Notes under the pieces: generated by a model | What the model saw: the letters and a program-made list of their open reading frames with translations, nothing else | The model's database searches: none | Told to the model about the DNA's origin: nothing | Virus record (IMG/VR): IMGVR_UViG_3300020204_000079 | Coordinates: 1-56,367 of that record | Reading direction: 5' to 3' (one strand) | DNA length: 56,367 nucleotides | Source of the DNA: a virus | Taxonomy: Duplodnaviria; Caudoviricetes | Made by a program: the position numbers and the translations under genes | Shown: in pieces, positions 777-53,789 of the stretch | Position numbering within the stretch: the stretch's first letter is position 1 | Layout of the letters: the number at the start of each line of letters is the position of its first letter

Positions 777-1498
777 ACAGCGACAACAGCACCGAACAGC
801 AGGAACAGCAAGAGCGCGCCCGGAAGCGGGAACAGGCAGCAGAGCGTCGTCGCCAGCGCAAGGAACAGGTGCAAGCCGAGGTACTGGCGGAAATCGTCCG
901 CGGTGATGAAAACGCCCACCAACAGCTTAGGCTGGCACAACAGTTGGCAACAGCTGTCATAAATGGCAAGACAGAGGCTGTAGGGCAAAAACAAACCCAA
1001 AATCAACAGCCAAGCTTAGCACTGGCTAACAGCGCATCAACAGTTGTGCAGGGTAGGGGTAGACCCAGCGATTACACCGATGAAGAAGCAGACGTTATTT
1101 GCGCATGGATAGCAGAAGGCAGATCACTGCGCAGTTACTGTCGCCTGGAGCATCGTGGAATGGATACGGTATATCGATGGCTACGGGAAAGAAGAGATTT
1201 TCGAGAGCGCTACGCGCGCGCCCACGAAGACAGGGCAGATTCTCTGGCAGATGAGATCACTGATATTGCCGATGAGGTAGCCAGCGCCAGCATGGAGGAA
1301 ATCCAGGCAGCGCGGCTGCGCGTGGACGCCAGGAAGTGGGTTGCCGCGAAGCTCAAGCCCACGAAATGGGGCGATTACCAAACCGACACCGCCAAAACAA
1401 ACGTGGTATTCAACATCGGCATCGGTCGCACCCACGCCATCGCACCCACACCCCCGTCTAACCCATTGAAAGTATTAGAAAGTAGTTCCGACATATAG
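773..1498 (+). CDS. terS: Terminase small subunit
   Basis: GRPSDYT..ICAWIAEGRSLR HTH and ARLRVDARKW.AAKL motif typical of terminase small subunits. Confidence 0.8.
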   Translation: MNSDNSTEQQEQQERARKREQAAERRRQRKEQVQAEVLAEIVRGDENAHQQLRLAQQLATAVINGKTEAVGQKQTQNQQPSLALANSASTVVQGRGRPSDYTDEEADVICAWIAEGRSLRSYCRLEHRGMDTVYRWLRERRDFRERYARAHEDRADSLADEITDIADEVASASMEEIQAARLRVDARKWVAAKLKPTKWGDYQTDTAKTNVVFNIGIGRTHAIAPTPPSNPLKVLESSSDI

Positions 1499-1786
1499 TC
1501 CGGTCTTCTATTTTGCAGCACGTCAGGCAGAACAGCCCCAGGACAGCTGTCCGACAGGGCGTAAACGCGCACGACGACGCATGCGGTGTCGCGGGCACCC
1601 CCGTGCGGACCCGCGGGCGCGCGACGCCGGGGCGCTGGGACCCCTATATATCCCCCTTCACACGCACTGGTCGCTTTTTTCAGTGCTTGGACACCCCCCG
1701 CATGGACCAAGACCCCCCCTGGTGGGTGGGGCATATGCTGTTCTGGCTATATTTTTGGGCTGATGCGCGGGAAACGGAGAATAAAT

Positions 1787-2053
1787 ATGCTTGATCGAGA
1801 GCTTGAAGGCTATTTGCGACAGTTCCCACCACTGTCTGAGGTGACGGTGTGCTACAGCAGCCCCGAAGCTCAGGCTATTGCCCCGTTTCTGGTGGTTATT
1901 TCTGGGTATGTGAGCCTGTATGGTGAGACTCACTACTATGAAACTGACTTTGATCTGCGCACTCTGGGGTCACATAAGGATTTAGAGCGTTTAGCATTGG
2001 TTTTAATGCGCTCAATTGAAGAGGCTGGCGAACATGTGTCGACTGTTCACTAA
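1787..2053 (+). CDS. Hypothetical protein
   Basis: GGAG RBS before ATG 1787; coupled to the next gene. Confidence 0.65.
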   Translation: MLDRELEGYLRQFPPLSEVTVCYSSPEAQAIAPFLVVISGYVSLYGETHYYETDFDLRTLGSHKDLERLALVLMRSIEEAGEHVSTVH

Positions 2054-2481
2054 TGAATGACCCAATTGGCGCTGTAAATTTCACGCCAGCCCTGGTTTCT
2101 AAAGATGGTGACCCGCATTTGGCGATGGCTTCAGTCAGGAACGTCTATATCAAGCAGATGTATTTCGTTAAACCTGGCGATAAGTTAGATGGACATAAGC
2201 ATGTCCATGACCACGCGACGCTTTTGGCGTCCGGAGCCGTCGAAGTTACCGTTAATGGGGTAACAACGCCGTTCCGAGCGCCCAAAATAATTTGGATTGC
2301 CGCGGATTGCGAGCATATGATCGTAGCCACCAAAGCCCATACCGTTGCGTATTGCGTTCACGCAATTAGAAATGGTGATGGGGTGGACGACATCATCGAC
2401 CCCGAGTCAATTCCTAATGGGACCCTCGGCTTTCACATGCCAGCCAATGCTAAATCTTTGTTGCGCAGCGACAAAGCATAG
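2053..2481 (+). CDS. Cupin-fold protein
   Basis: GHKHVHDH...G.VEV and EH cupin metal motifs. Confidence 0.75.
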   Translation: MNDPIGAVNFTPALVSKDGDPHLAMASVRNVYIKQMYFVKPGDKLDGHKHVHDHATLLASGAVEVTVNGVTTPFRAPKIIWIAADCEHMIVATKAHTVAYCVHAIRNGDGVDDIIDPESIPNGTLGFHMPANAKSLLRSDKA

Positions 2482-2489
2482 GAGGAAGC

Positions 2490-3433: not shown

Positions 3434-3593
3434 AACAGGCAAGGTATCCCGAATACAACTCGGCAACCGACGGAAACATTTTTGTATGGATTCAATCTGC
3501 TGTAGCCCAGTATCGTGCGCAGCAAGAAAATGAACTGTCTATGAGACCAAAAAGGAAAATAATTGCGCCGGAAATCTTTGACCCCCGAGCCAA

Positions 3594-5039
3594 ATGAATG
3601 TTAATTACATAGCCCCAGGTCCGGTGTGTGAACAGTTCCACCAGGACAATTCGTTTGTCCGTGGACTCATGGGACCAGTTGGCTCTGGAAAATCCACGGC
3701 TTGTTGCTTTGAGATTCTTAGCCGAGCCATAGAGCAGCAGCCAGGAAGCGATGGGGTGCGCCGTTCGCGCTGGGCTGTCTGTCGCAATACCTACCCTGAA
3801 CTCAAGTCCACCACGATCAAAACCTGGATGGACTGGTATCAGGACCTGGCGGTAATGAAGTGGGATACACCAATTACCAGCAACATCAATATCGCCAACA
3901 TTGGCGACGGCACGGGACTTGAGCTTGAGGTCATATTCATGGCGCTTGATCGCTCTGATGATGTCGGCAAGCTGAGGTCCTTAGAGCTAACGGGCGGCTG
4001 GATGAACGAGGCGTCCGAAATGGAAAAAGCTGTTCTCGACATGCTGACTCAGCGTGTTGGTCGGTTCCCGTCAAAGCGCAATGGCGGTCCTACTTGGACT
4101 GGTGTCATTATGGATACCAACCCGCCTGACGACGATAGCTGGTGGTACAAGCTGGCTGAAGAAGAGCGCCCAGAAATCTTCCGGTTCTTTAAACAGCCCG
4201 GTGGTCTTGTTCAAGATATAGACCCCAAGTCGCCCACGCATTTGAAGTATGTGCCCAACCCAGAGGCTGAGAACATTGTTAATCACAGCCTGGGCTATCA
4301 GTACTATCTGAATCAGCTGTACGGAAAAAACGAAGACTGGATCAGAGTATTTCTGCTGGGTCGGTATGGCACAACGATGGACGGCAAGGCTGTCTATCCA
4401 GAATGGTCCGAGAAGATTCATCTCTCAGAGTATGAGCTAACCCCGGTTCAGGGCATGCCGATACTGGCTGCATTTGATTTCGGGCTGACCCCGGCTTGCG
4501 CGTTCCTGCAAATGAACAGTCGAGGACAGCTGTTGGTTCTTAAAGAGTTTGTCTCCGAAGACATGGGCATCCGGCAGTTCTACTCAGAAGTCGTTCGCCC
4601 GGTTATCCGCGGCGAGTACAGCAAGCATCGAGTTGAAGCTGTTGGCGATCCGGCTGGGAATATGCGCAGCCAGACCGATGAGAAGACCTGTATGCAGGAA
4701 CTGATGGAGCTAGGGATTCTTTGCGAGCCAGCCCCAACGAATGAGTTTGTTGCTCGGCGCGAATCGGTTGCGTTCTTCTTACAAAGACTATCCGGTGGCG
4801 AACCAGGTTTCGTTGTTGACCCTAGTTGCAAAATGCTCAGGAAAGGTTTTAACGGCGGGTACAGATATGAGCGCTTGCGTGTTTCTGGCGGTGCGCGATT
4901 CAAAGATCGCCCAGTAAAAGATAAGTTTTCACACATTCACGATGCCTTGCAATACGGCTGTCTCCAAATGAGGTCCGAACTGAACCCAGTCAGAGCCAAG
5001 ACGATTGCGCATAGCCCGATGGCTGCTGGCTACGTTTAA
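3594..5039 (+). CDS. terL: Terminase large subunit
   Basis: Walker A GPVGSGKS, WMNEASE, DTNPP and nuclease DFG...HDALQY motifs. Confidence 0.95.
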   Translation: MNVNYIAPGPVCEQFHQDNSFVRGLMGPVGSGKSTACCFEILSRAIEQQPGSDGVRRSRWAVCRNTYPELKSTTIKTWMDWYQDLAVMKWDTPITSNINIANIGDGTGLELEVIFMALDRSDDVGKLRSLELTGGWMNEASEMEKAVLDMLTQRVGRFPSKRNGGPTWTGVIMDTNPPDDDSWWYKLAEEERPEIFRFFKQPGGLVQDIDPKSPTHLKYVPNPEAENIVNHSLGYQYYLNQLYGKNEDWIRVFLLGRYGTTMDGKAVYPEWSEKIHLSEYELTPVQGMPILAAFDFGLTPACAFLQMNSRGQLLVLKEFVSEDMGIRQFYSEVVRPVIRGEYSKHRVEAVGDPAGNMRSQTDEKTCMQELMELGILCEPAPTNEFVARRESVAFFLQRLSGGEPGFVVDPSCKMLRKGFNGGYRYERLRVSGGARFKDRPVKDKFSHIHDALQYGCLQMRSELNPVRAKTIAHSPMAAGYV

Positions 5040-5047
5040 GGATCACT

Positions 5048-9673: not shown

Positions 9674-9681
9674 TGAGGTTG

Positions 9682-11928: not shown

Positions 11929-13746
11929 ATGGCGCGCGACCCTAAAGCCCAGCGCCTGAAGGCTTTAGCGACTTACCAAGTTCTTAAAGCTCAGGCAAAA
12001 GCCGCTCTTGGTGAAGCTGCTGTCGCGCAGCAAAGCGTTATTGATGCAATTGCCAGGACTGCTGTACTTGCATCTGCAAGCAAGCAAAACGCAATAACAG
12101 CGTCAATAAAGTCAACGCTGCTTGAGGCGACAGCTGTTGAAACAGGGATGTTCTTTTTCCTGTTCCAGTTGGATGACCAGGCATTAACGTCGGACGCTCA
12201 GTTTCTGGACGTGTCGAAAGGAATTCTCGACAAGGAAGTTTTGGCTGTCGACCTTGCCTTGCGATCTTTTGGCAAGACCCTGGCGGATCAGTTCCTGATT
12301 TCTGACCAGTCGCTCAACTCTTTCGGCAAGAGCCTCAACGATCCCGTTGGAGCCTCTGAAGAATCCGTAACGGCTTTTTCCAAGCGATCTTTGGACATCG
12401 CAGCAACCAGCGACAACAGGCTGTTTGATGTTGCCAAACCTGTCGAGGATCAGTTTGATATTGCTGACTTAACCATCCTTGGGTTTGGAAAGCGCATTGA
12501 GAACTATTCTCAGGTCGTGGATGCTTTCGACAGGGTAGTGTCATACGTCCGGTTCTTTACAGATAGTGCTGATGCAACGGACGAAGTCAACGCTTTATTG
12601 TTGACCGACGACGGTCAGGTGATGGCGATTAACAAAGGTGTAATCGACTACACGTCGACGAGCGATGGGTTAATCACGTTTGCGCTGTCCAAGTCGTTAT
12701 CTGACCAGTCTCTGGCTACAGACTTAAAAGTTTTCAGCTTGGACAAGCCTTTTGCTGACTTGGCATCGACTAACGATCAGTCAGTGTCCAGCATCGAGAA
12801 GTCCCGCGACGATGTTTTTGTTGCCCAAGATCAGCGTCAGGCGTTTGTTGAGAAGTCCCTAACCGACTCAACGACAGCAACAGAATTACTGTTAAACAGC
12901 GTTGATAAGCTGTTGACGGAAAACGCCTCATTCGACGACAGTCAAGTTTTTGACTTTGATAGTCAACAATTTTCGGTTGCCCAGTCTTTAGACAGCACGG
13001 TACAACAGCTTGATAAACAGCTGTCCGATAGCGTTGACGCCACAGACGATATTAGCCACACGGTTGGAGCAGATGACCAGCAAGTTGCTGACTTCACAAA
13101 AGATCGGGCTGATCTGTTTTCCGCAAGTGACGTAGCGGTATCGGCGTTTAACAAACAGTCTTCAGACCTGGCTGTTTCTTCTGACAGCAAGTTTTACAAC
13201 CTGTCTACTGTTAAAACAGATACCGCCATATCTGTTGACTTTAGGTTCTACTTTTTGGCACGATTAGTCGTCGATCATCTTAACAGCCAAGATGTCAGAA
13301 CAAATAGTTTTACTAAGACAATTAACGATACCGTTTCAGTTTCTGATTCGGCTTTGCTTTCATCGATTCTGTCTCGGATCGATTCAATTTCAGCAACAGA
13401 TATTGTTGACGTTGTTCGGATTGCTGCTGGCGGTATTCCGGCTCAGTTCGAGAATCTTAGTATTGCTGATATTGCTGCCGTACTTGCGTTCAAAAATCTA
13501 TCAGAAACAATATCTACAACAGACGACTTTCTACAAGAAGCCAATGTTGATGATGATCAATTCAATGCCCTCGACAAGAACATTGTTGAGCTACTGAATG
13601 TAAGCGAGCAGCGCGCTGTTAGCTTGCAGCGCACCAATACGGAAACGTTTGGTGCAAATGACAGCGGACAGCTGTTCTTGACGGACTACTGTGATAGCAC
13701 TTACTTCACACAGTCCTATGTTGGAACCGAAAGAACCTTCACCTAA
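11929..13746 (+). CDS. Repetitive acidic virion/fibre protein
   Basis: Degenerate repeats of about 19-20 aa (K-x-L-x-D-x4-[ST]D); C-terminal YCDSTYF..YVG. Confidence 0.75.
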   Translation: MARDPKAQRLKALATYQVLKAQAKAALGEAAVAQQSVIDAIARTAVLASASKQNAITASIKSTLLEATAVETGMFFFLFQLDDQALTSDAQFLDVSKGILDKEVLAVDLALRSFGKTLADQFLISDQSLNSFGKSLNDPVGASEESVTAFSKRSLDIAATSDNRLFDVAKPVEDQFDIADLTILGFGKRIENYSQVVDAFDRVVSYVRFFTDSADATDEVNALLLTDDGQVMAINKGVIDYTSTSDGLITFALSKSLSDQSLATDLKVFSLDKPFADLASTNDQSVSSIEKSRDDVFVAQDQRQAFVEKSLTDSTTATELLLNSVDKLLTENASFDDSQVFDFDSQQFSVAQSLDSTVQQLDKQLSDSVDATDDISHTVGADDQQVADFTKDRADLFSASDVAVSAFNKQSSDLAVSSDSKFYNLSTVKTDTAISVDFRFYFLARLVVDHLNSQDVRTNSFTKTINDTVSVSDSALLSSILSRIDSISATDIVDVVRIAAGGIPAQFENLSIADIAAVLAFKNLSETISTTDDFLQEANVDDDQFNALDKNIVELLNVSEQRAVSLQRTNTETFGANDSGQLFLTDYCDSTYFTQSYVGTERTFT

Positions 13747-19775: not shown

Positions 19776-20320
19776 GTTTGCGTGATGCCATTAAAGAGCA
19801 GCATGAGGAGGCTGAGCGCCATCCTCTGACGACTGTTATGATGGCTGGGTCTTTGACGCCGCAAGCTTATGCAGAACTTTTGGCAAACCAATTGATTGTT
19901 TATCAAGCAATTGAAAGCAGAGCTTCGTATTTTGGAATTTCTCAATCCCTGCCTGGGGTCGAGCGATCCGGCTTGATAATGGAAGACCTTATTGAGCTTT
20001 CAGATATGTGTGGCGGTCTTGAATTCTTTGCGTCCAAAGCAACCGCTACTCAACGAGAAAGAATCAATGATCTTGACGTTGATGGCGTAATTGCCAACAT
20101 GTATGTTCACCATATGGCTGACATGTACGGCGGTCAGATTCTGAAAAGCAAGTTGCCCGGGAAGTGTCGGCGTTATGACTTCGACGACAGAAGCGCTCTT
20201 GTTTCTGGTATTAGAGCAATGCTGAAAGATGAGATGGCTTCAGAGGCTAATCTTGCGTTTGAGTTCACCCTTCAGCTTTTTGACGATGTCGCAGACAAGC
20301 ACGGTCTTCTCGCAGCTTGA
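19772..20320 (+). CDS. hemO: Heme oxygenase
   Basis: Proximal His in EQHEEAE, YVHHMADMYGGQ distal helix, EANLAFE. Confidence 0.9.
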   Translation: MSLRDAIKEQHEEAERHPLTTVMMAGSLTPQAYAELLANQLIVYQAIESRASYFGISQSLPGVERSGLIMEDLIELSDMCGGLEFFASKATATQRERINDLDVDGVIANMYVHHMADMYGGQILKSKLPGKCRRYDFDDRSALVSGIRAMLKDEMASEANLAFEFTLQLFDDVADKHGLLAA

Positions 20321-20954
20321 AATATTTAAAGATGAGCTTGTAAAAGTTCTTGATACTTACCCGCCTGTAGACGAAGGTCACGATTTCCCGTGGGAAAACC
20401 ACGTTTGGACTTCGCCCACATTTAGGCGCGCACATCTTGACGTTGTTGACGCAAGACACACAAAGCGCCTATACATGTTGCACTTGACTGTTTTTCCGAA
20501 CACGTCTAGCGGTGCGCCCATATTTGGTTTTGACCTAATCGCTGGTCCCAACAAAGTTACTGGCGCTTTCCACGACTTCAGCCCAATCGACCGAAGCCAC
20601 CCTATGGTTGCTTGGTTCGCTTGTCGTGTTTCTGAAATGGCTTGGAGTAAAAGGCGGCAGCTTCCCCCGTGGGCTGAAGAAATTTTTAGCGCCAGTATGG
20701 TAGCTGCTGGAAACATCACTGATGAGTCAGAACTAAGGGCAGTATTAAATCTTGCCTACGATAACCTCCGCTACTATATTAACAATGTAGATGTTGGCAG
20801 CGGCATGTTTATCAAGAAGCAAAATAAATATTGTCAAAATCAAAAGATGAATCCACATACTCCAAAAGTAATGGCTTCGCTCGGCTTTGAAGAGGATTTG
20901 ATCTATGAGTTTATTCAAAAGTGTCTTTTCCCAGAGCTTCCAGAGTCTGGTTGA
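20286..20954 (+). CDS. pcyX: Ferredoxin-dependent bilin reductase, PcyX-like
   Basis: FRRAHLD, LHLTVFP, PIFGFDL, HDFSP, LPPWA.IFS, YC.NQK.NPHT motifs; overlaps hemO. Confidence 0.85.
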   Translation: MSQTSTVFSQLEIFKDELVKVLDTYPPVDEGHDFPWENHVWTSPTFRRAHLDVVDARHTKRLYMLHLTVFPNTSSGAPIFGFDLIAGPNKVTGAFHDFSPIDRSHPMVAWFACRVSEMAWSKRRQLPPWAEEIFSASMVAAGNITDESELRAVLNLAYDNLRYYINNVDVGSGMFIKKQNKYCQNQKMNPHTPKVMASLGFEEDLIYEFIQKCLFPELPESG

Positions 20955-28276: not shown

Positions 28277-28489
28277 ATGGATATAACTAACAAGCAAATT
28301 GTTGTTATGAGAATGTCATCTGACAGCATGGCTAACAGCACAGTTGTTTTAGCTGAACTGTATGTCCCAATTGCGGACGACGCCAGAAGAATGACTGATC
28401 AGATTGAGCTTCGTGTGCCGGGTAGTTTTATGTATCCGCAAGACCCAGAGTTACTTCAAGCGATTGCACAGAGACTGTTGGAGATTTAA
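28277..28489 (+). CDS. Hypothetical protein
   Basis: Coupled ORF. Confidence 0.6.
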   Translation: MDITNKQIVVMRMSSDSMANSTVVLAELYVPIADDARRMTDQIELRVPGSFMYPQDPELLQAIAQRLLEI

Positions 28490-40053: not shown

Positions 40054-40098
40054 CTGTCACGCCGGGGGTCGCGGGTTCGAGTCCCGTCCACTCCGCCA
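40054..40098 (+). other. attP core: 3' half of tRNA-Asp(GTC)
   Basis: Anticodon loop CTGTCAC, T-arm GCGGG-TTCGAGT-CCCGT, acceptor strand ending GCCA; no 5' half; adjacent to the integrase. Confidence 0.9.
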
Positions 40099-40105
40099 AC
40101 TTCTC

Positions 40106-40143: not shown

Positions 40144-41169
40144 TTACTGTGGGTTAGAAGCGCCCACGTTCCCCACATTTTGCGCACAGCCACCCACAGC
40201 TGTTGGCATGCTGTTGTTGGCGTACTGTCTGGAGCCTTCAGCCGACAGGTGAGCGTACCTGTTGACCATCTCCAGGGTTTGCCAACCGCCCAGCGCCTTG
40301 AGTGTGAGCAGCGGTGTGCCGTTCATGGCGTGATAGCTGGCGAAGGTGTGACGGAGGTCGTGCCACCTGAAGTTAGAGATGCCAGCCCTGCCCAGTGCTT
40401 TCTTCCAGGCTGCTGTGTTTGTGTTCTGTACTGGGTAGCCGCAGTATGTGAACACATGTGTAGCGCTTTGGTTTCTTTCACCTTCAAGAATCTGGATCGC
40501 TCTATCCCCTAGAGGGATGCCGTGATTTCGACCCGACTTGTACTCAGTCGATTCAATCCACAGCAAACGACGCTGCATGTCAACCCGGTCCCACCGAAGT
40601 CCAGTCACATTGGACATCCGAAGACCTGTCAATACGCTGAACTCAGCCATCACCCGCAAGTGGTGCGGCAGTTCACGCATCAACCTGGACAGTTCATCCT
40701 CAGATAGAAACCGCAGACGCGCTTTGGGCGCGGGGTAGGTCTTCATCTTGACGGGCGACACATCCATCCATCCCCATTCGACCGACTTATTAAAGAGCGC
40801 CTTCACGAACTTTAGGTAGTGGTTTGCATTTGAGTCCGTAGTCTCAATACGCTTTTGCTCCACTGCCTTGCGAACATCGCCATCAGTGATCGTCGAGAAC
40901 ACTCGACCAGACCAGTGCTGATCAAGCCATCGCGCAATCGATACGTCACGGTCCAGCGACCGCTTGTCTGTGCGCTCAGCAAACCACCGCTTAGTGGCGT
41001 CGTCCCAAGTTAGAGGTTTGGCTTGACCCCTTGTGATTTCAGCCAAACGTCTGTCGTGGTACGCCTTTGCTGTTAACTGGTTACCAGACCCAGTTGATTC
41101 ACGATGTCTGGTGCCATCTGGACCGCGCACTTCAATCCAGTAAATGCTGCCGCGCTTGTAAATACTCAT
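40144..41169 (-). CDS. int: Tyrosine integrase
   Basis: TGLR, HDLRHT, LGGW, RYAH catalytic motifs. Confidence 0.95.
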   Translation of the reverse strand: MSIYKRGSIYWIEVRGPDGTRHRESTGSGNQLTAKAYHDRRLAEITRGQAKPLTWDDATKRWFAERTDKRSLDRDVSIARWLDQHWSGRVFSTITDGDVRKAVEQKRIETTDSNANHYLKFVKALFNKSVEWGWMDVSPVKMKTYPAPKARLRFLSEDELSRLMRELPHHLRVMAEFSVLTGLRMSNVTGLRWDRVDMQRRLLWIESTEYKSGRNHGIPLGDRAIQILEGERNQSATHVFTYCGYPVQNTNTAAWKKALGRAGISNFRWHDLRHTFASYHAMNGTPLLTLKALGGWQTLEMVNRYAHLSAEGSRQYANNSMPTAVGGCAQNVGNVGASNPQ

Positions 41170-41770: not shown

Positions 41771-42567
41771 CCGTGCGCGACGTTGCAGTAACTGGTGCAG
41801 CGCCGATACTCGCCGGGTCTAAATTCGACAAAGTGGTCTTTGCCGCCAGTCGCTGCCGCAGCCTCAGCTTCATCGCGTGACTCGTAGAGCTTGACTGCCG
41901 TCTTGCGTCCGTTCTTCTTGAGGGCGAAGACAGGGGGCTGCATCCAGCGCTCCTCGTCTGTGCAGGGCGGAGGGGCTGCGTTCTGGTGAGCCTTAACCCG
42001 CTCAAGCATGAACTCCTCCGCCTTGACGATGTCCCACATGGGGATGTCGACCGCGGCAATCGGCAACTGTGGGTACTCGGAATCGCGCTTAGCTTGCGTC
42101 ATCTGGTGATCACGAAGTAAGGCAATGACTCGCAGTGCTTTGACATCCATGCCGTTTCGTAGCGCCAACACGCGAAGCAAGTTCAGCTGTTGCACCCACT
42201 CGACCTTTGGCTCATCACCTTTGACCGACCAGAAGGTCGTGAACTTGTAGTCCATCAGAACGCCATCCTCAAAGAGGTCGTACTGACCGGACACGGTCCA
42301 GTTGTGGAACTGAGCAAAGAGCCTGTTCTCGACATCGGACCCAAGCCTGAGACCGGCTCGCTCCAGGATGCCATGACCAATCTGACCGTAAAGGCTGAAC
42401 AGTCGCTCTGCCACATCCTCAACAGGCTCAACAGTTGTTTTAAGCTGTCGCTGATAGGGTGGGGTGATTAGCTGGGTGACGCTGATGTCGGAGTTGCCCC
42501 GTGTGTAAGGGTCGTTTTGCACCGCGAGGACCACAGCTTGGGGTAGATTAAGCTTATTAGTTAGCAT
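41728..42567 (-). CDS. PD-(D/E)XK exonuclease (Cas4-like)
   Basis: SVTQL, G.YD..DYK, QLNL, C-terminal Cys cluster. Confidence 0.8.
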   Translation of the reverse strand: MLTNKLNLPQAVVLAVQNDPYTRGNSDISVTQLITPPYQRQLKTTVEPVEDVAERLFSLYGQIGHGILERAGLRLGSDVENRLFAQFHNWTVSGQYDLFEDGVLMDYKFTTFWSVKGDEPKVEWVQQLNLLRVLALRNGMDVKALRVIALLRDHQMTQAKRDSEYPQLPIAAVDIPMWDIVKAEEFMLERVKAHQNAAPPPCTDEERWMQPPVFALKKNGRKTAVKLYESRDEAEAAAATGGKDHFVEFRPGEYRRCTSYCNVAHGCPVFQQAQQSEMR

Positions 42568-43106
42568 ATGCGTTCTCCAACTTGGACTCCGTAAGGTTCT
42601 TGCGCCGCGGCGATAAGCGCGCTCATGTTCAACAGCTGTTTGGAATGAACAGCCAGCCGCTCGCCATAGCCAAAGTTTTTGACTTCTGATTTCTGAATGA
42701 AGTCCTGGCGGTCGATGATGCCGCGCACGGTGACCGTGGTTTCGTAGTCATCGATGTTGCACAGGATTCCGTAGTGGCAGTACGGGCTGAACGCTTGTTC
42801 ATTGTTGACGTACAGCCAGTCTTTGGTTTGCGGTGAGATGGTCGTTTTGATTTGCAGTCTGCGACCGGCGAAGACAAGGTCTGTTCCCCCGTCCCCGCCA
42901 ACCAACACACGCTCGTCAGGCTCAATGCACAGCATCCGTGCAACAGCTACCTCACCGAAGAATCCTAAGTAAGCAATCCCAAAGTCATCGCGCTTTACAT
43001 CGTGCTTTTTTGTGCGCACATAATGCCGACGCTTTTTGTCTTGCCTAGCAAAGGTGATCCTCTGCACCATCTCAATGTCCCTGTCAGACAGTCTAAGGCG
43101 CCACAT
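42561..43106 (-). CDS. PD-(D/E)XK-like nuclease
   Basis: G.FGEVAV, DGG.DL, QIKT. Confidence 0.65.
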   Translation of the reverse strand: MWRLRLSDRDIEMVQRITFARQDKKRRHYVRTKKHDVKRDDFGIAYLGFFGEVAVARMLCIEPDERVLVGGDGGTDLVFAGRRLQIKTTISPQTKDWLYVNNEQAFSPYCHYGILCNIDDYETTVTVRGIIDRQDFIQKSEVKNFGYGERLAVHSKQLLNMSALIAAAQEPYGVQVGERIC

Positions 43107-43533
43107 TGCGCAGGACTCGCTCTAGTACCCGAGCCACAGACTTTGCTTCTTGGATGGACAAGGTGATGTCCCTGTCTTCCAAGCAGATTGTGATCCGATC
43201 AACTGTTGCCGTTGGATTTTGTTCAACGACCGCGTTGGCGTTCTGCAAAGCCAAAGCCTGTCTTTTACGCTGAGCCTTGGATATTGGTAAGCAGCCAGGG
43301 CGCAGATAGAACCCCTCTAGGTTCATGTTTCGAGAGACGTACTGGTACTTGTTGCGCCCACTGTTGTCTTGCTTACGCTTGACTTCTTTGGCGCGAAACA
43401 ACTTGAAAAGCGACAGGCTTACCGCCTCAATGCTTTTGCCAAGCGTCATCGAAATTTCACTACTGCTGACTGGATTCGGCGAAGCCTGAATCACTGACAG
43501 CACCTGGGATCGCAATTCTTTTTCAGTGGACAT
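43093..43533 (-). CDS. Winged-helix DNA-binding protein
   Basis: VSSSEIS..LGKS..AVS..L.KL...EVKR. Confidence 0.6.
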   Translation of the reverse strand: MSTEKELRSQVLSVIQASPNPVSSSEISMTLGKSIEAVSLSLFKLFRAKEVKRKQDNSGRNKYQYVSRNMNLEGFYLRPGCLPISKAQRKRQALALQNANAVVEQNPTATVDRITICLEDRDITLSIQEAKSVARVLERVLRNVAP

Positions 43534-43543
43534 GATGTTTCCT

Positions 43544-44143
43544 TCAAAATGGTATGTCTTCGTCGTCTTGGTCGGATGCGCCAGGGTTAGAGCCAACAGC
43601 ATCAAGCTGCTGAAACTCAGGACTTTTTCGGATCAGTTCTTGGTAGTACTTGGGCGTCTTCTCGAAATCAGCAACCGAGTAGTTGTCAAGATCAAAGATG
43701 TGGATTTCGTTGACCATTTTCGGACTGGGCAAGCCCTCCGGCATCGCCATCACCGAAGCCACGTTTGCGTAAGTCCTGTCGTTTTTAGTCGTGTGAACGA
43801 TGTTGAGAAAGCACACCTTGCCGACGAGTTCTCGGCAGTTAAAGCCCTGCTTCTCAACCTCGGTGAATTTCTTGCCGCGCCAAGACTCCAGCATTAAGCA
43901 AAGCCGAGCCTTGTCGTTAAGGCTTACTGTGTACTTCTCGGAGATTTGGAACGGCTTGCCGTTTTCCATGTTCTTGCTGATCTCCCATGTGATGACACAT
44001 TGGTGCGCCCTCTTGGTCTCACCCTTGACGTTAAACGTCTGGGTACCCAGGTCTATCACCCGGTAGCACCGCGCCGCAAACGCTCCGGCTGGTGCAATTT
44101 CATACGAACTTTCGACAGCTTTGTCACGCGCTATAAGTCCCAT
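43544..44143 (-). CDS. Putative phage ssDNA-binding / replication protein
   Basis: ARCYRVIDLGTQ, YTVSL.DKA.L..LESWRG, acidic C-terminal DEDIPF. Confidence 0.8.
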   Translation of the reverse strand: MGLIARDKAVESSYEIAPAGAFAARCYRVIDLGTQTFNVKGETKRAHQCVITWEISKNMENGKPFQISEKYTVSLNDKARLCLMLESWRGKKFTEVEKQGFNCRELVGKVCFLNIVHTTKNDRTYANVASVMAMPEGLPSPKMVNEIHIFDLDNYSVADFEKTPKYYQELIRKSPEFQQLDAVGSNPGASDQDDEDIPF

Positions 44144-44463: not shown

Positions 44464-45114
44464 TTAGACCACCTGAGACCTTGCGTAGCAGAAGACCTTG
44501 CCCACTACCGCAGGAACAACTGAGAACAGCTGTTGCTCTGGCAGTACAACAGGCTCAAACATTCGGTCGTCCTTGCTCAGGCGGATGTTGGAGCCAATCC
44601 TCTGCACCCTGCGCACCTCGGTTCTTTCGCTGAAGCGCATGATGTAAAGACCGTCGCCCTCAATAGACTTGATGCCCAGGTCAATGTAGAGACAGTCCTC
44701 TGGAACGATGGTCGGCTGCATCCCAGCATCTTCAAACACCGAGGCTACGATGTTCTTAGTGGCTGTCACCCGGCTGAACCTTGGGTATGCTGTTGGCAGC
44801 ACCATAAAGTAGTCGTAACGCTCTGGTGCAACGTCAGGAATTTGGCTGTAGTCCACAATGGGAATGGTCAGCACACGCTTGACCCCGACGCCGCGGGGCG
44901 TGTCGAGCCAGCCCCTGCTAATACCAAGCCGCTGCTCGATGTCCCGTGCCAGCTTCTCGCCGAAGCCCCGCCTGTAGTCTTCGTTCTCTGTCAGCACCAG
45001 GTTGATAAGGTTTGGGTTCTTGCCAGTAGCACGGCAGAATGCCGCGCGGTTGCCCTTGTAATGGTCTTTGATGTAGGTAACTAGGTTAATTCGTCTCGAC
45101 TGCTGTAAGTCCAC
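44464..45114 (-). CDS. cI: CI-like repressor (HTH plus S24-like domain)
   Basis: RGFGEKLARDIE..LG...GWLD; S24-like C-domain; divergent from a cro-like gene. Confidence 0.8.
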   Translation of the reverse strand: MDLQQSRRINLVTYIKDHYKGNRAAFCRATGKNPNLINLVLTENEDYRRGFGEKLARDIEQRLGISRGWLDTPRGVGVKRVLTIPIVDYSQIPDVAPERYDYFMVLPTAYPRFSRVTATKNIVASVFEDAGMQPTIVPEDCLYIDLGIKSIEGDGLYIMRFSERTEVRRVQRIGSNIRLSKDDRMFEPVVLPEQQLFSVVPAVVGKVFCYARSQVV

Positions 45115-45152
45115 TGAGATCGCTCCCTAAAATGACTTGTACGTTACAAGTT

Positions 45153-45236
45153 AGTAATACCATAAAGCATTGCTGATTGCAAGAGTGACGTGCTTGTCAG
45201 CGCAAAAGAATTAGGGCACACTACCGCATGGTATTG
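45153..45236. promoter_or_regulatory. Divergent cI/cro promoters with two operators
   Basis: + strand TTGTCA-17-CACACT; - strand TTGCAA-17-TATTAC; operators at 45155-45172 and 45219-45236. Confidence 0.6.
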
Positions 45237-45252
45237 TTAACAGGGGTACAGC

Positions 45253-45859: not shown

Positions 45860-46300
45860 ATGATGACCGCGCCGCACTTGCACCACCTCCCACTCCACAT
45901 CGAAGAAGAAGACGGCGTCTTCACGATCCACCAAACAGTTGGCGCAACAGCCGACGACGTGATCACAATCAAGATCACCCAGGATCAGGCACAACAGGTC
46001 GCCAAGTTCCTAACCAAGCCCAAGCAATCAACAGCAGAAGACGCCGCCCTGGTTGATGGGTTCGCAGACTTTTGGTCAGCGTATCCGCGCAAAGAAGGCA
46101 AGGCACGGGCGCTCCAGCTTTGGAAAACGCACCGGCTGCACAGCCAGCAAGCCCTGGTCATGCGCCACCTCAACTCGGTCAAGCACGAAGACCAGTGGAC
46201 GGAACACGGTGGTCGATTCGTTCCCCACGCAGCCACCTACCTGAGCCAGCGTCGCTATCTCGACGAAGTTGTTCAGGCAGACAACAGCCAATTCTTATGA
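45860..46300 (+). CDS. Replication initiator-like protein
   Basis: FADFWSAYPRKEGK..A...W and FVPHAATYL.QRRY.DE motifs. Confidence 0.75.
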   Translation: MMTAPHLHHLPLHIEEEDGVFTIHQTVGATADDVITIKITQDQAQQVAKFLTKPKQSTAEDAALVDGFADFWSAYPRKEGKARALQLWKTHRLHSQQALVMRHLNSVKHEDQWTEHGGRFVPHAATYLSQRRYLDEVVQADNSQFL

Positions 46301-46755
46301 TCGACCGATCCAAACTTCCATTTGGCGGCGAGTCCATTCTGGTTAGTCGCATGCGCAAGGTGAAGCCTGAGAAGGTGTTCGTGTCCTTGCTGCCAGCGTC
46401 GGTTCGCCTAAACGTCGAGCCGTTTGCTCTGGTGCGCGCGATCCCAACCAAGACATACGACTGGCGGTTTCTGCATCAGGTGGATACGGTCATTGTCTGC
46501 AATCAAGAACAGCAGTCGGTACAGCTGTTCGATCAGCTGGCGCAGCAGTGCAAACCGCTCGCCGTTTGGTTCCTGGATGAAAAGATTGGCTACGACATTT
46601 ATCGTTTGCCGGACCCCGACTCAATTGAAGGTCGAAGCCCAGAAGACTGGAAGTGGACGCTCGATTTAACCCCCTGGCATCGTTCCATGAATACGGAGTG
46701 GTTGGACTGGATGGAACAGACTGTAGAGGGGTCTTATGTACAACACATTGCCTGA
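46297..46755 (+). CDS. Hypothetical protein
   Basis: ATGA overlap; DWRFL motif. Confidence 0.65.
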   Translation: MIDRSKLPFGGESILVSRMRKVKPEKVFVSLLPASVRLNVEPFALVRAIPTKTYDWRFLHQVDTVIVCNQEQQSVQLFDQLAQQCKPLAVWFLDEKIGYDIYRLPDPDSIEGRSPEDWKWTLDLTPWHRSMNTEWLDWMEQTVEGSYVQHIA

Positions 46756-47731: not shown

Positions 47732-48099
47732 TAACAAACAGCTGTCCGCCTTGCAACAACGACTGCAACCAGGGTCGCAACTGTCCCGCAAGAAGTAGGA
47801 AAGCAACTATGAAGTTTACTCAAGCAGATAAAGAATTTTTTGCGGCTGTTCGCCAAGAGAAACCAGAGGTTGATCATCTGTTCAAAGACTTACGCTCATT
47901 GATGACCCAGTTTCCAGGCAGCAGTATTACTTATCTGAAGATTGGTGAATTTGAGTGGGGCGAGAAGTCGCCGGAAGGCGTGGTCCCTTGCTTAGCGACA
48001 ATATCAAACAGCACAAAACAGCAGCAAAAGGTTTCGACTCGGGATGCTCGGCGTCGATTGATAACTCGTTACGCAGGGGACACGCATGGATCAAAATAA
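47728..48099 (+). CDS. Hypothetical protein
   Basis: N-terminal CPPCNNDCNQGRNCP; alternative start at 47809. Confidence 0.55.
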   Translation: MITNSCPPCNNDCNQGRNCPARSRKATMKFTQADKEFFAAVRQEKPEVDHLFKDLRSLMTQFPGSSITYLKIGEFEWGEKSPEGVVPCLATISNSTKQQQKVSTRDARRRLITRYAGDTHGSK

Positions 48100-48541
48100 G
48101 ATTGCTTTCAATGGTGAAATGATGCTGCTTCAATGGGCGGAGTCATCCACCCGCGGCAGGACCGTGACGTTTCTGCTCGGCGACGATGGCGAGTCGCATC
48201 CTTTTAGAGACTTCACCATTCGCCAGGGCAAGCGGGCGGGGCAGCGGTTCATGGCTGTGCTGGTTCAGATCGGCGACGATGAACAGCCTGTTGAACAGCG
48301 CAGGACGCTGTCGCAACAAGCATTTATCCTTTGCCGTAATTCTGATTTCTGGAATTGGGCGCAGTCACGTTCGTTTGACAACATCGACAACGAAGCAGCA
48401 GCGCGCAACTACATCTGCAGTACGCTCGGCATTCAGAGTCGAAGTGAAATCGATTCAAACCAGGACGCTGCTGACGGTTTCCAGCGATTGATCCTAGCCC
48501 CCTTTAATTCGTACCAGGCTTACATGAACCCGCTGACATGA
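48086..48541 (+). CDS. Hypothetical phage protein
   Basis: AGQRFMAVLV, LC...F, IC...GI.SRSE.D motifs. Confidence 0.7.
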   Translation: MDQNKIAFNGEMMLLQWAESSTRGRTVTFLLGDDGESHPFRDFTIRQGKRAGQRFMAVLVQIGDDEQPVEQRRTLSQQAFILCRNSDFWNWAQSRSFDNIDNEAAARNYICSTLGIQSRSEIDSNQDAADGFQRLILAPFNSYQAYMNPLT

Positions 48542-48840: not shown

Positions 48841-49210
48841 TTGCGTGAGTCTTAAACTACCATACCCACCATCGGTCAACGTGTACTGGCGCAAGCGCGG
48901 GAACATAACTTATCTCAGCAAGAAAGGGCGACAGTTCAAAACAGCTGTTGCTGAATACGTTAGCGAACACAACGTGCGCAAATTCGGATCGAAAGCTGTC
49001 GAGGTCTGCATCATTCTGAACCCTCGCAGTCGATCCGGGTTTATGGACATCGACAACTGTTGCAAAGCTGTTCTTGACAGCTGTCAGGACGCTGGCGTGT
49101 TCGATGATGACAACCAGGTCGTCCGGCTAGTGGTGGAGCGCGGCGTTTACACAAAGGGTGGCGCTTGTCTGGTGTTTGTCAATGAAAGGACAAATCATGG
49201 CGAGCAATGA
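48833..49210 (+). CDS. rusA: Holliday junction resolvase RusA
   Basis: LPYPPSVN.YWR and DIDN..K..LD.....G.FDDD.QV. Confidence 0.9.
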   Translation: MTNCVSLKLPYPPSVNVYWRKRGNITYLSKKGRQFKTAVAEYVSEHNVRKFGSKAVEVCIILNPRSRSGFMDIDNCCKAVLDSCQDAGVFDDDNQVVRLVVERGVYTKGGACLVFVNERTNHGEQ

Positions 49211-49766
49211 GCGAATCGGACGCGCACTGAACAGTAATAATCTGCGACAGGATGAGTTGCACTCTGACGTTGATGTCATCGCGGCTCTTGCTTTTGCGTC
49301 TAGGCTTGGTTCTTCGCTTCAATCTTTAAAGTCTGGCGGTCACCTGAACCAACTACCTGACAGCGTTTATCTGCTGTCGCTGGCTTTGATCCGAAGTGGT
49401 AGACGTAAGCGAATAGGCATAAGCCGCGACAAGGCAGAGATCGTTTCTCGGCAAGCCTTGCTTGAATGGTTGATTCAAATTTGCCGCAGTTGCAATGGCA
49501 CTGGGCACAGGCTGAGCGACTATACGGTCAAGCCCATAAGGCATCTGAGAAAAAAGAACAGTGATGATATGTGTCCGCACTGCAATGGGACCGGAAAATT
49601 TATGCCGACCTGGGCTTGGCGCAGACAAATGATGAGTTTGGATGGCGAAGAGTCAAAGGCTTGGTGGGAAAAAAGAATTGAGTTCGCAAAAGAAATCGCA
49701 GACGACGCTTACCACGGCGCTAAACGCAAAGTGACGGTCCAGTTAACAGATTTGCTCAGCCCATAA
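49197..49766 (+). CDS. Antiterminator Q-like protein
   Basis: Two CxxCxGxG motifs; last gene of the replication/nin block. Confidence 0.6.
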   Translation: MASNERIGRALNSNNLRQDELHSDVDVIAALAFASRLGSSLQSLKSGGHLNQLPDSVYLLSLALIRSGRRKRIGISRDKAEIVSRQALLEWLIQICRSCNGTGHRLSDYTVKPIRHLRKKNSDDMCPHCNGTGKFMPTWAWRRQMMSLDGEESKAWWEKRIEFAKEIADDAYHGAKRKVTVQLTDLLSP

Positions 49767-49771
49767 TAGGG

Positions 49772-49820: not shown

Positions 49821-49930
49821 AAGGTAGGTACAATGTTGGCAGGGCTTCCCAACTACCAAATTTAAATTAGCCCTGACTGCAAAGGCACAGCCACCCTCTG
49901 AAAATAACTCAAGGGTGTTACTACAAGCAC

Positions 49931-50539: not shown

Positions 50540-50606
50540 GCTGTTGCTCCAGGTTGGTTTAAAGCCGGGTCGAGGGAGGGCTGCCGCCCCTTTGTTGAAC
50601 AGCTGT

Positions 50607-50834
50607 TCATATCAACCCCCCGCCGCAATGAAAGTTCAGAAACTTTAGAACATCTGTTTTGTTTAATTTAATTTGATATTCTTTAATGTGCGGTGGCCGA
50701 ATACCATCCTCACCTAATTCTTCCCATTGTTTTGTGAAGTGCGTTAGATATTGTTGTGCTTCCCGTTTATTTGAAAGCCAAACAATTGTTTCGGTTTCTA
50801 AATAATGATAATAAGTAACTTTATAAATATTCAT
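50607..50834 (-). CDS. Hypothetical protein (AT-rich)
   Basis: AAGGAG RBS before ATG 50834. Confidence 0.6.
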   Translation of the reverse strand: MNIYKVTYYHYLETETIVWLSNKREAQQYLTHFTKQWEELGEDGIRPPHIKEYQIKLNKTDVLKFLNFHCGGGLI

Positions 50835-50974
50835 TTTCGTTCTCCTTTCACCGTCTGCTGTGGGACGCGCCCGATTGCCCAGGCATAGGCTGCCTAGTAC
50901 CTCTGACCAAACCGCTTGTTGTAGTTGGTGTAGAACGCGATGATGAAGTCCTCGACCTTGTTGGTGTCGAGGGT

Positions 50975-51418: not shown

Positions 51419-51440
51419 TTCGCTTCTCCTGTTGATTAAA

Positions 51441-51683
51441 TCAAACCTTGGCTGGATCAGCTTCCAAGCCGAACAGTTCAAAGTACTTCTCGGGGCTGAC
51501 TTTGGTCACCCTTACACATTCCTCACCGCCAAGCCGCATGCTCCGACAATGGTCGGGGTAGCACATGTCAGCGATTTCCCAGGCGCGCTTGGCGCTGGTG
51601 TAGCTGTAGGGTTTGCCGGTGGTTGGGCGAAGGACGACCCAGTCGTCGTCCAGGGTTTTGATGTGGATGATGAATAGTTCCAT
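51441..51683 (-). CDS. Hypothetical protein
   Basis: AAGGAG RBS; MCYPD motif. Confidence 0.6.
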   Translation of the reverse strand: MELFIIHIKTLDDDWVVLRPTTGKPYSYTSAKRAWEIADMCYPDHCRSMRLGGEECVRVTKVSPEKYFELFGLEADPAKV

Positions 51684-51719
51684 TTGATGCTCCTTAATGG
51701 GGGCTTGCGCCCCCTGGGT

Positions 51720-53789
51720 TTACATGACACGGCGCGTGTCGCGCTGTTCCAGCTGTTTGATTACTGTTTTCAGCGAAGACTTGTGCATGTCGTCCAGCGT
51801 GACCGGGCAACCGACTGCGTAGGCTTGCGAGAATTGCCAAGCGTTGGTGTATATGCCAAAGCCGACGACATCGACGCCGTACAACTTGTAGGCAGCGCTG
51901 GTAAGCTGCTGCATAGAGTTGATTTCGCCGAACCCGTCCGTAATGACCACTACTACCTTGCGCTGGTGGGGCATGGCGGACAGCTGTTCGCAGGCTGTTT
52001 TGACGCCCTGGTAGTCCGGTGTTCCGTAGTTCGGCAGCCGCTTCATAAGGTCGAAGTGGTGCGGAACATTGGCGCATTTGTCAGCAAAGCGCTTAGCAAC
52101 TACCAGGGTGCAGTTGCCGCTGTCCATCATGGTGGAATGGTAGACGCCAGCCAAGTCAGTGTTTGTACCGCCACCCATGCCGTACCGTGCGTTTTGGAAG
52201 CCGACAACTTCAACGTCAGCACCCGACGCCTCGCAAGCTGTTGCAACAGCCCAGCCAAGATCAACAGCGCTGTTGATGGACGAACCTTTCATCGAGGCAG
52301 ACAGGTCGATGACAACCGAGACCGCAGTATCGATGCCATCGGCAAACCACCGGCGCTTGAACACTTGCTCGGAGCCAGCCAACATGCGGGGCGCGCGCTT
52401 GCCGTCGAAGCGACCGCCCATCGCGCCACCGTCCCAGCCGCAGCGCTCCGGAGCGTTAAGAATCCGGAACAGCTGAGCCTTGAGGGCGGGGAGCGAGGAG
52501 CCGTTTAGCTTTTTAAGCTTGTTGCGCACGGTGCGCTCGGTTACATCCTGCAACTGCGACCACTTGCGCATGTCACTGCGCATTGCGGGAGCGATGGCGG
52601 GAAGGTTGATGGCACCCTTGGTGCGCTGGGCAATACCCTGGAAGACATCGTCCACGTTTGGCTCGGGGGCAATGACCGCCTCCTCGCTAAAGGTGTCCGA
52701 CTCAGGGGCGATGAACGGGTCGCCGACCTCGGTGCCGCCGGTTTCATCAGCACCATCGTCGGCGTCACCGGCGCTGTCGAAGAGCGTGTCGCCCGACTCG
52801 GGTGCAGCCTCGGCGTTGGCAGAAGCTTCCTCAGACAGTGCGTCAGCCTCAGCCTGGGCAGCAGCTTTGGCAGCAGCGTCGGGGTCGTCATCACCGAAGT
52901 TGTCATTGGCATCGTCCTCCGCGAAACGCGAGGGGGGATTCCAATGCCCGCTAGGTCCATCGGTGTCGGTGTCAGCATCAGCATCAGCATCAGCACCAGC
53001 ACCGAATAAGTCGTCGTCGGCAGCGTCCTGCGGCTCGGCGTCGTCGCCTTGCTGCTGGGGCATTGACTGCGGACCCTGAAGCTTGGTGAACGTATCGGGG
53101 AACTGCTGTTTCCAGCTGTCCACAAACTGTTCGGCGATCACCAGGGCACCAGCGCTGCCCTTGCGATCAAGCGGCAGGAGCTTGACTGCGTCGGCTGCTG
53201 CTGCATACAGCGCGCGGTGCGGTTCAGGGATGCGCCCCAGAAGCTGCTTAGCAAAACCGTTACCGTCACCCATTGCAGCGCGGCAAACCAGCGCCAGAGC
53301 GAAGGGTGCCGAGTTGATGCTGCAAGGGTTGAATTCGCCGTCAGCAATGATTTTGCTGGTGAACTTGCTCATCAACTTTTTGAACATCGAACGGGCACCG
53401 CGAGCCTTGCCGCTGGTAATGACCGCATGCTCGATCCGGGCGTCCTCGATGCCGTTCCAGCAGTGGTGAATCAGCGCACCCTTGTGGCGCGTCACGCCAG
53501 ACTGGGTGTAGGCGACGTGCCCGAGTTCATGCAGCGTATAGGCGCTGATGAAGTCCGCCTCCTGGCGGTTGATCATGGCGTTGTCAGGCAGCGCTGGGTA
53601 GTTGATCCGGAAGGAATTGACCCAGTCGGTGTCGGTGTTGTTCACGCTCCACGATGCAAACGCCACGTCACCCTCGAAAGTGGCGACGCCGGTGCCGACC
53701 TTGAAGCGAAAGCCAAGGTTTGCCAACTGCTTGTTGGCGTGGGAGAGGGCGGCAGCTTTGACGCGCGCCCCTTGTATGCGGTTTGTCAT
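51720..53789 (-). CDS. CobT-like vWA-domain protein
   Basis: HELGH, NGIEDARIE, acidic linker, MIDAS DLSASM, GTP, VITDG. Confidence 0.85.
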   Translation of the reverse strand: MTNRIQGARVKAAALSHANKQLANLGFRFKVGTGVATFEGDVAFASWSVNNTDTDWVNSFRINYPALPDNAMINRQEADFISAYTLHELGHVAYTQSGVTRHKGALIHHCWNGIEDARIEHAVITSGKARGARSMFKKLMSKFTSKIIADGEFNPCSINSAPFALALVCRAAMGDGNGFAKQLLGRIPEPHRALYAAAADAVKLLPLDRKGSAGALVIAEQFVDSWKQQFPDTFTKLQGPQSMPQQQGDDAEPQDAADDDLFGAGADADADADTDTDGPSGHWNPPSRFAEDDANDNFGDDDPDAAAKAAAQAEADALSEEASANAEAAPESGDTLFDSAGDADDGADETGGTEVGDPFIAPESDTFSEEAVIAPEPNVDDVFQGIAQRTKGAINLPAIAPAMRSDMRKWSQLQDVTERTVRNKLKKLNGSSLPALKAQLFRILNAPERCGWDGGAMGGRFDGKRAPRMLAGSEQVFKRRWFADGIDTAVSVVIDLSASMKGSSINSAVDLGWAVATACEASGADVEVVGFQNARYGMGGGTNTDLAGVYHSTMMDSGNCTLVVAKRFADKCANVPHHFDLMKRLPNYGTPDYQGVKTACEQLSAMPHQRKVVVVITDGFGEINSMQQLTSAAYKLYGVDVVGFGIYTNAWQFSQAYAVGCPVTLDDMHKSSLKTVIKQLEQRDTRRVM

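Follow-up and report, generated by a model that had tools for sequence, protein, structure and literature searches.

An iterated palindromic octamer as a possible protein-read address word in the DNA of temperate freshwater phages

The palindromic octamer ACAGCTGT occurs 26 times (4.6 copies per 10 kb) in IMG/VR record IMGVR_UViG_3300020204_000079 (Duplodnaviria; Caudoviricetes), a stretch of 56,367 bases that is the whole genome of a temperate phage from lake water and is called "the window" below. This word is enriched over nulls that preserve the encoded proteins, and it recurs at non-orthologous places in related phages. Where DNA of the window can be aligned, it is conserved in position beyond the level of other octamers; it is used without regard to orientation, and it is recoded in lineages that have been purged of its central hexamer. 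It may well be a DNA address word, read by a protein and selected in a lineage of temperate freshwater phages, although this reading is held tentatively.

Copy number, null models and reading frames

The original prediction, which was made from the letters of the window alone, listed 26 copies; all of its positions were exact, and no others were found. Dinucleotide shuffles (n = 100) held 1.17 ± 1.16 copies (maximum 5), and Markov models of orders 1–4 gave means of 1.2–2.5. Order 5 gave 10.6 ± 3.0 copies (maximum 18, n = 100). A synonymous-codon shuffle that preserved the proteins (n = 500) yielded 5.59 ± 1.73 copies (maximum 11), a figure that counts two intergenic copies, which were held fixed; a codon-order shuffle yielded 3.20 ± 1.09 (maximum 7). 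The enrichment thus survives the codon-aware null under which, as the prediction had allowed, it might have vanished. The runner-up palindromic octamer in the window has 6 copies.

The bases around the word were counted from the flanks and agree with the prediction. The 5' neighbor is a purine in 24 of 26 copies (A in 15, G in 9; the exceptions are C at 40196 and T at 46521), and the 3' neighbor is a pyrimidine in all 26 (T in 19, C in 7). The hexamer CAGCTG occurs 47 times, 26 of them in the context A..T, and the flanks beyond it are thus constrained. The half-words ACAGC and GCTGT have 140 and 123 copies, respectively. Palindromes are otherwise shunned, a contrast that had also been drawn correctly: 26 of the 64 palindromic hexamers are strongly avoided in the window (at most 15% of expectation), with CGATCG absent and GGCC present twice, yet the word stands 26 times.

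Several reading frames are used, as had been noted. Eleven copies encode T-A-V, 11 x-Q-L-x and two N/D-S-C, and two lie between genes. Thr-Ala-Val tripeptides number 17 (8.1 are expected from the amino-acid frequencies), and 11 of them are spelled ACA-GCT-GTN, which is the word; likewise, 11 of the 24 xQL[FLSYCW] places are so spelled. In the closest relative, G001, usage approaches saturation: 19 of 24 Thr-Ala-Val (9.4 expected) and 19 of 31 xQL[FLSYCW] places are written as the word.

Copy density is highest in the early/replication arm and in a giant gene for an ejected protein, and it is low in the head and tail modules. The copy-free stretches described earlier, 13.7–21.9 kb and 24.5–29.4 kb, are real. 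The portal-to-head genes (5–12 kb) encode no peptide able to hold the word. The tail-fiber block (13.7–21.3 kb), which has no homolog in the relatives, contains no copy, and a few word-capable peptides in it are left unused.

Relatives: conservation, loss and recoding

The relatives comprised 80 TerL loci in IMG/VR, and ten whole related genomes were compared. The top octamer in many contigs of the TerL relatives is AACAGCTG. Against the codon-aware null, the word has 43 copies in G001 (6.6 expected; 7.3 per 10 kb), 22 in G002 (6.2 expected), 34 in G407 (4.8 expected) and 40 in G409 (7.9 expected). Sister phages that are word-less were also found: G005 has five copies (0.8 expected), all inside 5.7 kb, G410 none (0.2 expected) and G411 five (2.2 expected). 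Phages with the word span 52–66% in G+C and 55–65 kb in genome size. Each of the ten relatives avoids 7–23 palindromic hexamers, and the sets differ, with Jaccard indices of 0.09–0.59 over all genome pairs and 0.18–0.59 among the six genomes with a clear ACAGCTGT or variant word.

G001 aligns with 42% of the window at 72% identity. In this alignable DNA, five of six copies are conserved, compared to 11.8% of other 8-mers (Fisher p = 1e-4); for G002, the figures are two of five copies and 7.6% (p = 0.05). None of the copies in G407 or G409 is aligned with a copy in the window, which, together with the divergence between the window and G001, argues that most copies arose independently. Orthologous copies include those at 4526, 29438, 39402, 40196 and 51980; many others have been gained or lost between relatives. 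Dyad-symmetric flanks around the word are present in every genome.

From the left end of the window, the copies are placed as follows. The first lies at 950–957 in the small-terminase gene (frame T-A-V), the second at 1543–1550 between genes (kept in G001), and the third at 4526–4533 in the TerL gene, where it encodes G-Q-L-L. This last peptide is widespread in TerL, and its spelling GGA CAG CTG TTG is confined to some clades; the copy is kept in the clade with 88–90% identical TerL and is ACAGTTGT in the G003 clade. Further T-A-V copies are found at 12130–12137, 21909–21916, 24254–24261, 24488–24495 and 29438–29445 (the last kept in G001), and copies that encode K-Q-L-S and G-Q-L-F at 13017–13024 and 13668–13675, respectively. 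The gene for a 2727-aa polyvalent protein harbors those at 33007–33014, 33723–33730, 33931–33938, 35817–35824, 36421–36428, 36849–36856 and 39402–39409 (the last kept in G002). The copy at 40196–40203, at the 3' end of the integrase gene, is kept in both G001 and G002. A minus-strand gene carries the one at 42632–42639 (K-Q-L-L), the CI-like repressor gene that at 44526–44533, and an ORF at 46072–46755, which overlaps a replication-initiator-like ORF, that at 46521–46528. The copy at 47738–47745 encodes N-S-C; two in the RusA-like gene are located at 48941–48948 and 49077–49084, the latter encoding D-S-C. The copy at 50599–50606 is intergenic, and the rightmost, at 51980–51987, lies in the CobT-like gene (kept in G001, ACAACTGT in G003). 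Variants of the form ACARYTGT are located at 1040–1047 and 28340–28347 (one transition each) and at 49053–49060 and 50782–50789. A further variant, ACAGTTGT at 42431–42438, aligns with an intact ACAGCTGT in G001.

In G003, CAGCTG is one of 14 avoided hexamer palindromes and has no copy at all. In its stead, ACAACTGT/ACAGTTGT occurs 26 times (5.6 expected). These variants share the outer flanks AACA..TGTT with the word, and two of them sit exactly at ACAGCTGT positions of the window. The variant is asymmetric, and it stands in both orientations relative to the sense strand (13:10); the copies in frame 0 encode TVV or TTV, not TAV. G004 and its kin use the same variant (14 copies, 4.4 expected), and G004 does so with 266 copies of GGCC, i.e. 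without avoidance of that site. These variant words indicate that recognition takes place on duplex DNA rather than on RNA, and that the outer bases of the word matter most. The persistence of the word in G003 without CAGCTG also renders unlikely a restriction or methylation enzyme that needs the intact hexamer. The constraint on the flanks is a second ground against a target of a restriction-modification system or of an orphan methyltransferase strictly specific for CAGCTG. A drive by repair of the very-short-patch type was rejected, as the one-transition neighbors of the word are not depleted in the window (4 copies).

Two other lineages have words of their own. G408 (L129–L132), which is free of CAGCTG, has a weaker, one-sided word, CACAGCC (53 copies, 20.8 expected), with a strand bias of 17:36. 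In G005 (L094–L096), a modestly enriched asymmetric word, ACGTGTAC(G), is present 10 times (0.8 expected).

Candidate readers

Several proteins of the window were considered as readers of the word and set aside. The winged helix-turn-helix protein (43093–43605), which had been put forward in the original prediction, fares poorly, with a relative in only one of the five word-bearing genomes searched (G001, 30% identity). A CI- or Cro-type regulator was rejected, as the cI–cro intergenic region (45115–45252) has no copy and has a different palindrome. This is the 17-bp ACTTGTACGTTACAAGT at 45135–45151 (ACTTGTA-N3-TACAAGT), which lies between the CI-like gene and the gene in the Cro position; it is likely the immunity operator, and it is unrelated to the iterated word. 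A Zn-ribbon protein (49158–49766) is confined to the core clade (four of six word-bearing genomes) and lacks an HExxH motif. The distribution of the small terminase TerS is unfit as well, with homologs in the word-less G005 and G410.

Searches for a SprT-like protease (PF10263) gave nothing over the cut-off in the window, in five ACAGCTGT relatives or in five records that bear the second palindrome described below (GTTTAAAC); sub-threshold matches were one of 12 bits in G002 and two of 11–15 bits in the GTTTAAAC records. No small conserved ORF was found beside cobT, where the neighbors of about 165 aa are either an HD hydrolase or ORFs that are unrelated. Nor did the analysis identify a ribbon-helix-helix protein.

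A cobS/cobT-like pair and a second palindrome

The co-distribution of genes and word was scanned with every reading frame of the window of at least 35 aa against the ten genomes. Only two adjacent minus-strand genes, with the frames that overlap them, occur in each of the six genomes that clearly bear the word and are missing from all three word-less ones. The first (53801–55021) encodes a CobS-like AAA+ ATPase of the MoxR class whose N-terminal domain, of 50 residues and three helices, is SAP-like. The second (51720–53789) encodes a CobT-like protein with an N-terminal HExxH motif (HELGH), an acidic linker and a C-terminal VWA domain. The HExxH of the CobT-like protein is conserved (INYP...AYTLHELGHVAYT), and the acidic linker ahead of the VWA domain is long.

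The same association is seen among the TerL loci. All 15 loci with the ATPase hold 6–14 copies of the word upstream; of the seven without it, six hold 0–2 copies and one (L034) holds five. The mosaic contig L073 has seven copies in 7.2 kb, and the cobS-like ATPase is the sole gene among those it shares with the window that occurs in 15 of 15 word-bearing and in none of six word-less loci; it also shares terS, which is found in two of the six word-less loci, and terL, which is found in all. A search with the ATPase as the query recovered further phages at 44–49% identity, including G407 and G409, whose counts given above are for the whole records.

A profile search with the ATPase returned 57 loci (L272–L328) from a second phage group, otherwise unrelated. 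The CobS-like proteins of these loci are 42% identical (median) to that of the window, form 30 clusters at 90% identity and carry N-terminal extensions of about 75 to more than 90 residues. Besides the CobS- and CobT-like genes, window genes with homologs in these loci are limited to an exonuclease (21 of 57) and the 151-aa ORF at 48086–48541 (4 of 57). A second palindrome, GTTTAAAC (YGTTTAAACR), is present in 56 of the 57 loci at five or more copies per 10 kb. It totals 672 copies in 704 kb (ca. 9.5 per 10 kb), and words of the ACAGCTGT type only 12. By crude ORF calls, 260 of the copies are intergenic, and the others encode R-L-N or x-F-K.

The pair has features of the aerobic cobaltochelatase CobS/CobT, which acts together with CobN in cobalt insertion, namely a MoxR-class AAA+ protein beside a VWA partner, with matches to PF07728 and CobT_C. 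For the N-terminal domain of the CobS-like protein, the best structural matches were SAP domains, foremost that of PIAS1 (Z 5.7; 52 residues aligned at rmsd 2.5), and also SF3B2, FAN1 and Rho-N; all of these matches are weak (Z < 8). A Foldseek search with the 60-residue N-terminal domain found none at E ≤ 0.001, Pfam found no match for the N-terminal parts of either protein, and the protein atlas held none that was usable.

A number of observations speak against a tie between this pair and the word. The fold of the ATPase is nearest to NorQ/CbbQ, which are protein remodelers, and the VWA part of the CobT-like protein matches solved CobT (E = 1.5e-6). SAP domains have no known sequence specificity. 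A comparable palindrome is absent from four cultured phages that carry cobST (CRP-810, Zobellviridae T5S1, RHph_TM3_14A and Mae-Yong1326-1), and in G408 cobST is present with the weak, one-sided word noted above. The TerL tree shows three to four changes of the trait, with one contrast on well-supported branches and four on all branches (sign test p = 1). Excerpts of PMC8651126 describe viral cobST as a cobalamin auxiliary gene and note that viral cobT is frequently labeled a peptidase. The same correlation between cobST and the word could also stem from a shared host clade.

Given the few independent contrasts and the four palindrome-less cultured phages, the pair is retained as a lead to the reader only; it is a rather doubtful one, and what it offers is an association. 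A bolder proposal, which we consider improbable, is that the pair is something other, or something more, than a cobalamin auxiliary and might be the motor of a DNA-word system, in which a SAP-tethered MoxR-type ATPase with a zincin/VWA partner would act on palindrome-marked phage DNA. One CobS clade would then use ACAGCTGT and its sister clade GTTTAAAC, and words and machine would be co-inherited across otherwise unrelated phages.

Two of the cultured phages have other words. In the first 50 kb of Rhizobium phage RHph_TM3_14A (L331), the asymmetric word AAGGTAACC is strongly enriched, and GAGGTAAC occurs 23 times (1.9 expected). Microcystis phage Mae-Yong1326-1 (L149; 72% G+C) carries 17 copies of GCGATCGC, the HIP1 palindrome of cyanobacteria (5.0 expected).

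Comparison with known iterated words

HIP1 is the closest parallel. According to excerpts of PMC5861425, it is a palindromic octamer that exceeds expectation many-fold in coding DNA, where it falls in several frames, and that also lies between genes; it is conserved beyond codons, and variants replace it in some lineages. The word of the window shows the same excess over composition-aware and codon-aware nulls and the same spread over frames and intergenic DNA. Unlike HIP1, it has a different sequence, belongs to a phage lineage rather than to a bacterial phylum, and changes by a single central transition in lineages purged of CAGCTG. Elhai (2015) reportedly linked alternate HIPs to cognate methyltransferases; no methyltransferase family was detected in the 52 ORFs of the window that were scanned (PHROGs and/or Pfam), 13 small ORFs lying outside that scan.

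The stoperators of Cluster A mycobacteriophages resemble the word in that dozens of short sites are spread over a temperate genome, and they are read by a phage protein (excerpts of PMC9283540 and PMC6550527). Unlike them, the word is palindromic, has 24 of its 26 copies inside genes and is absent from the cI–cro control region. Stoperators are asymmetric 13-bp sites that are the same as the immunity operator and depend on orientation; the 13:10 distribution of the asymmetric variant in G003 shows no such dependence. Chi, DUS/USS and KOPS are short words at high density that are read by a DNA-handling machine, but they are asymmetric, oriented and found in cellular genomes.

The MetJ met-box, AGACGTCT, is an 8-bp palindrome of abutting half-sites that is read by a ribbon-helix-helix dimer. 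By analogy, MetJ would be a plausible structural model for the putative reader, although met-boxes stand in tandem in few operators and are not dispersed. In the main texts searched, no literature on ACAGCTGT or GTTTAAAC as phage words was found.

Proposed explanation and its alternatives

We infer that the word is bound by a protein, that this reader is dimeric and that the benefit of the copies is additive. The full word would be roughly S-R-ACAGCTGT-Y-S. A two-fold-symmetric protein that binds double-stranded DNA would read the abutting half-sites RACAG|CTGTY, mainly via the outer ACA/TGT. The benefit would rise with copy number, and selection would write the word at the majority of places that the proteins permit, even favoring Thr-Ala-Val. 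Lineages purged of CAGCTG would keep the least-changed form, ACAACTGT/ACAGTTGT. Such a reader would be predicted to hold AACAGCTGTT and AACAACTGTT duplexes over scrambled ones, and the binding might serve silencing, compaction, self-recognition for replication or recombination, or protection. The dispersed site for a DNA-organizing protein that was suggested in the original prediction is in keeping with the dyad symmetry, the orientation independence and the tolerance of a central transition; the binding itself is proposed from sequence patterns.

The second suggestion of that prediction was a HIP1-like word shared with the host. In this scheme, a host methyltransferase-repair system or nucleoid protein would impose the palindrome, prophages would drift toward it, and cobST and the word would both mark one host clade. 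The window is indeed temperate (it has an integrase, a CI-like repressor and a putative attP at the 3' 47 nt of tRNA-Asp), and HIP1 sets the precedent of a selected palindromic octamer, whose function is given as unknown in the excerpts of PMC5861425 on cyanobacteria. Viral cobST is seen as a host-directed auxiliary gene in those of PMC8651126. Further, the mild HIP1 excess in the Microcystis phage implies that phages can carry a host word.

The bacterial genomes sampled do not bear this out. Among 401 Pseudomonadota genomes (the class sampled around G006; one member, G389, is unpublished), none exceeded ca. 0.41 copies per 10 kb, compared to 4.6 in the window; the densest had 181 (4.6 Mb) and 126 copies (3.1 Mb). 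G006, which is labeled as a Steroidobacteraceae metagenome-assembled genome, holds the one distant prophage match in the GTDB genomes (TerL 44%), and the 401 genomes gave five TerL matches at 42–48%. A single copy was present among 120 metagenome loci (826 kb) that share the tRNA-Asp 3' end with the phage attP. The differing G+C contents and avoided hexamers of the word-bearing phages suggest diverse hosts, and word-less sister phages exist. The variant ACAACTGT would be no substrate for a CAGCTG-specific methyltransferase, and, as stated, none of the 52 scanned ORFs belongs to a methyltransferase family. Finally, the copy-free, unshared tail-fiber block and the clustered copies of G005, taken with these host data, indicate that the word tracks the history of the DNA and not the cell. 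Imposition by the host is thus judged unlikely, if deserving of serious attention.

It is very unlikely that the word is Chi-like, i.e. that its copies modulate a recombination nuclease or shield replicating or injected phage DNA. Such a role would account for an additive benefit per copy, and the window encodes an exonuclease and a RusA-like resolvase; temperate phages have been reported to carry host Chi words. However, the Chi and uptake words that are known lack symmetry, depend on orientation and abound in the host, whereas the present word is a palindrome whose variant is found in both orientations and which is enriched in no sampled bacterial genome.

Equally little is gained from a packaging tag, a highly improbable use in which an Sf6-type small terminase would read the word and many pac-like sites would favor phage over host DNA. 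Sites do cluster near terS, at 950, 1040 (a variant) and 1543 in the window; G001 has four no more than about 1.3 kb from terS, and G002 has four near terS inside about 1 kb. Nevertheless, TerS homologs are present in the word-less G005 and G410, a TerS of the window's type was not found in G409 with its 40 copies, and headful packaging requires one pac site.

That the word has no function and only follows from codon or dipeptide usage, or from heavy restriction-site avoidance, is hardly credible: the half-words are abundant, the order-5 Markov model yields 10.6 copies and 26 hexamers are avoided, but the codon-aware nulls refute the notion (5.6 vs 26 copies in the window and 4–8 vs 14–43 in seven relatives). 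The use of one codon triple for 11 of 17 Thr-Ala-Val also speaks against it, as does G004, which still carries the variant alongside its 266 GGCC.

Four points weigh against the reading of the word as a protein-read address. Between G001 and G002, only two of 13 copies are conserved, without significant excess, so many single copies are dispensable; the conservation in relatives that the prediction called for accordingly holds for the comparisons with the window and not for this one. No protein that binds the word was identified from the sequences. Helix-turn-helix dimers do not typically read half-sites of 5 bp that abut. Last, the test of a host-imposed process extends to the 401 sampled Pseudomonadota genomes only.

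The phage and its genes

Near-identical DNA was found solely in sequencing runs labeled as lake water metagenome. The 50,697 deposited phage records of INPHARED held no near match, and the best TerL relatives among cultured phages are 45% identical to TerL of the window. The marks of a temperate phage include a tyrosine integrase (40144–41169, minus strand) and a CI-like HTH/S24 repressor (44464–45114, minus strand). Positions 40054–40100, between the giant gene and the integrase gene, are identical to the 3' 47 nt of tRNA-Asp(GTC) and probably represent the attP core. No tRNA gene was found in the window. A 30-mer from the tRNA-Asp part of attP is too widespread in metagenomes to point to one host.

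Also encoded are a DnaB-type helicase and a replication initiator, together with an exonuclease, a RusA-like resolvase and an HNH endonuclease. An Sf6-type small terminase (terS), TerL, a lysozyme and tail fibers are encoded as well. The 2727-aa polyvalent protein has MuF_C and LPD38 domains. Among the tail-fiber genes, on the plus strand, lies one for a ferredoxin-dependent bilin reductase (20229–20954; PF05996, E = 7e-20). Its best deposited match (42%) is from Pelagibacter phage Mosig, and no homolog was found in the relatives examined.

Significance

Iterated palindromes such as HIP1 have long gone unexplained, in part because they sit in large cellular genomes. The phages described here are only 55–65 kb long, and they supply natural experiments in the form of word-bearing and word-less sisters, a recoded clade and a group with a second word. 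Small genomes with such natural controls make the reader findable. If the link to cobST were true, the widespread annotation of this viral pair as auxiliary metabolic would have to be reconsidered. More generally, a short DNA word can shape the choice of codons, and even of amino acids, across a virus.

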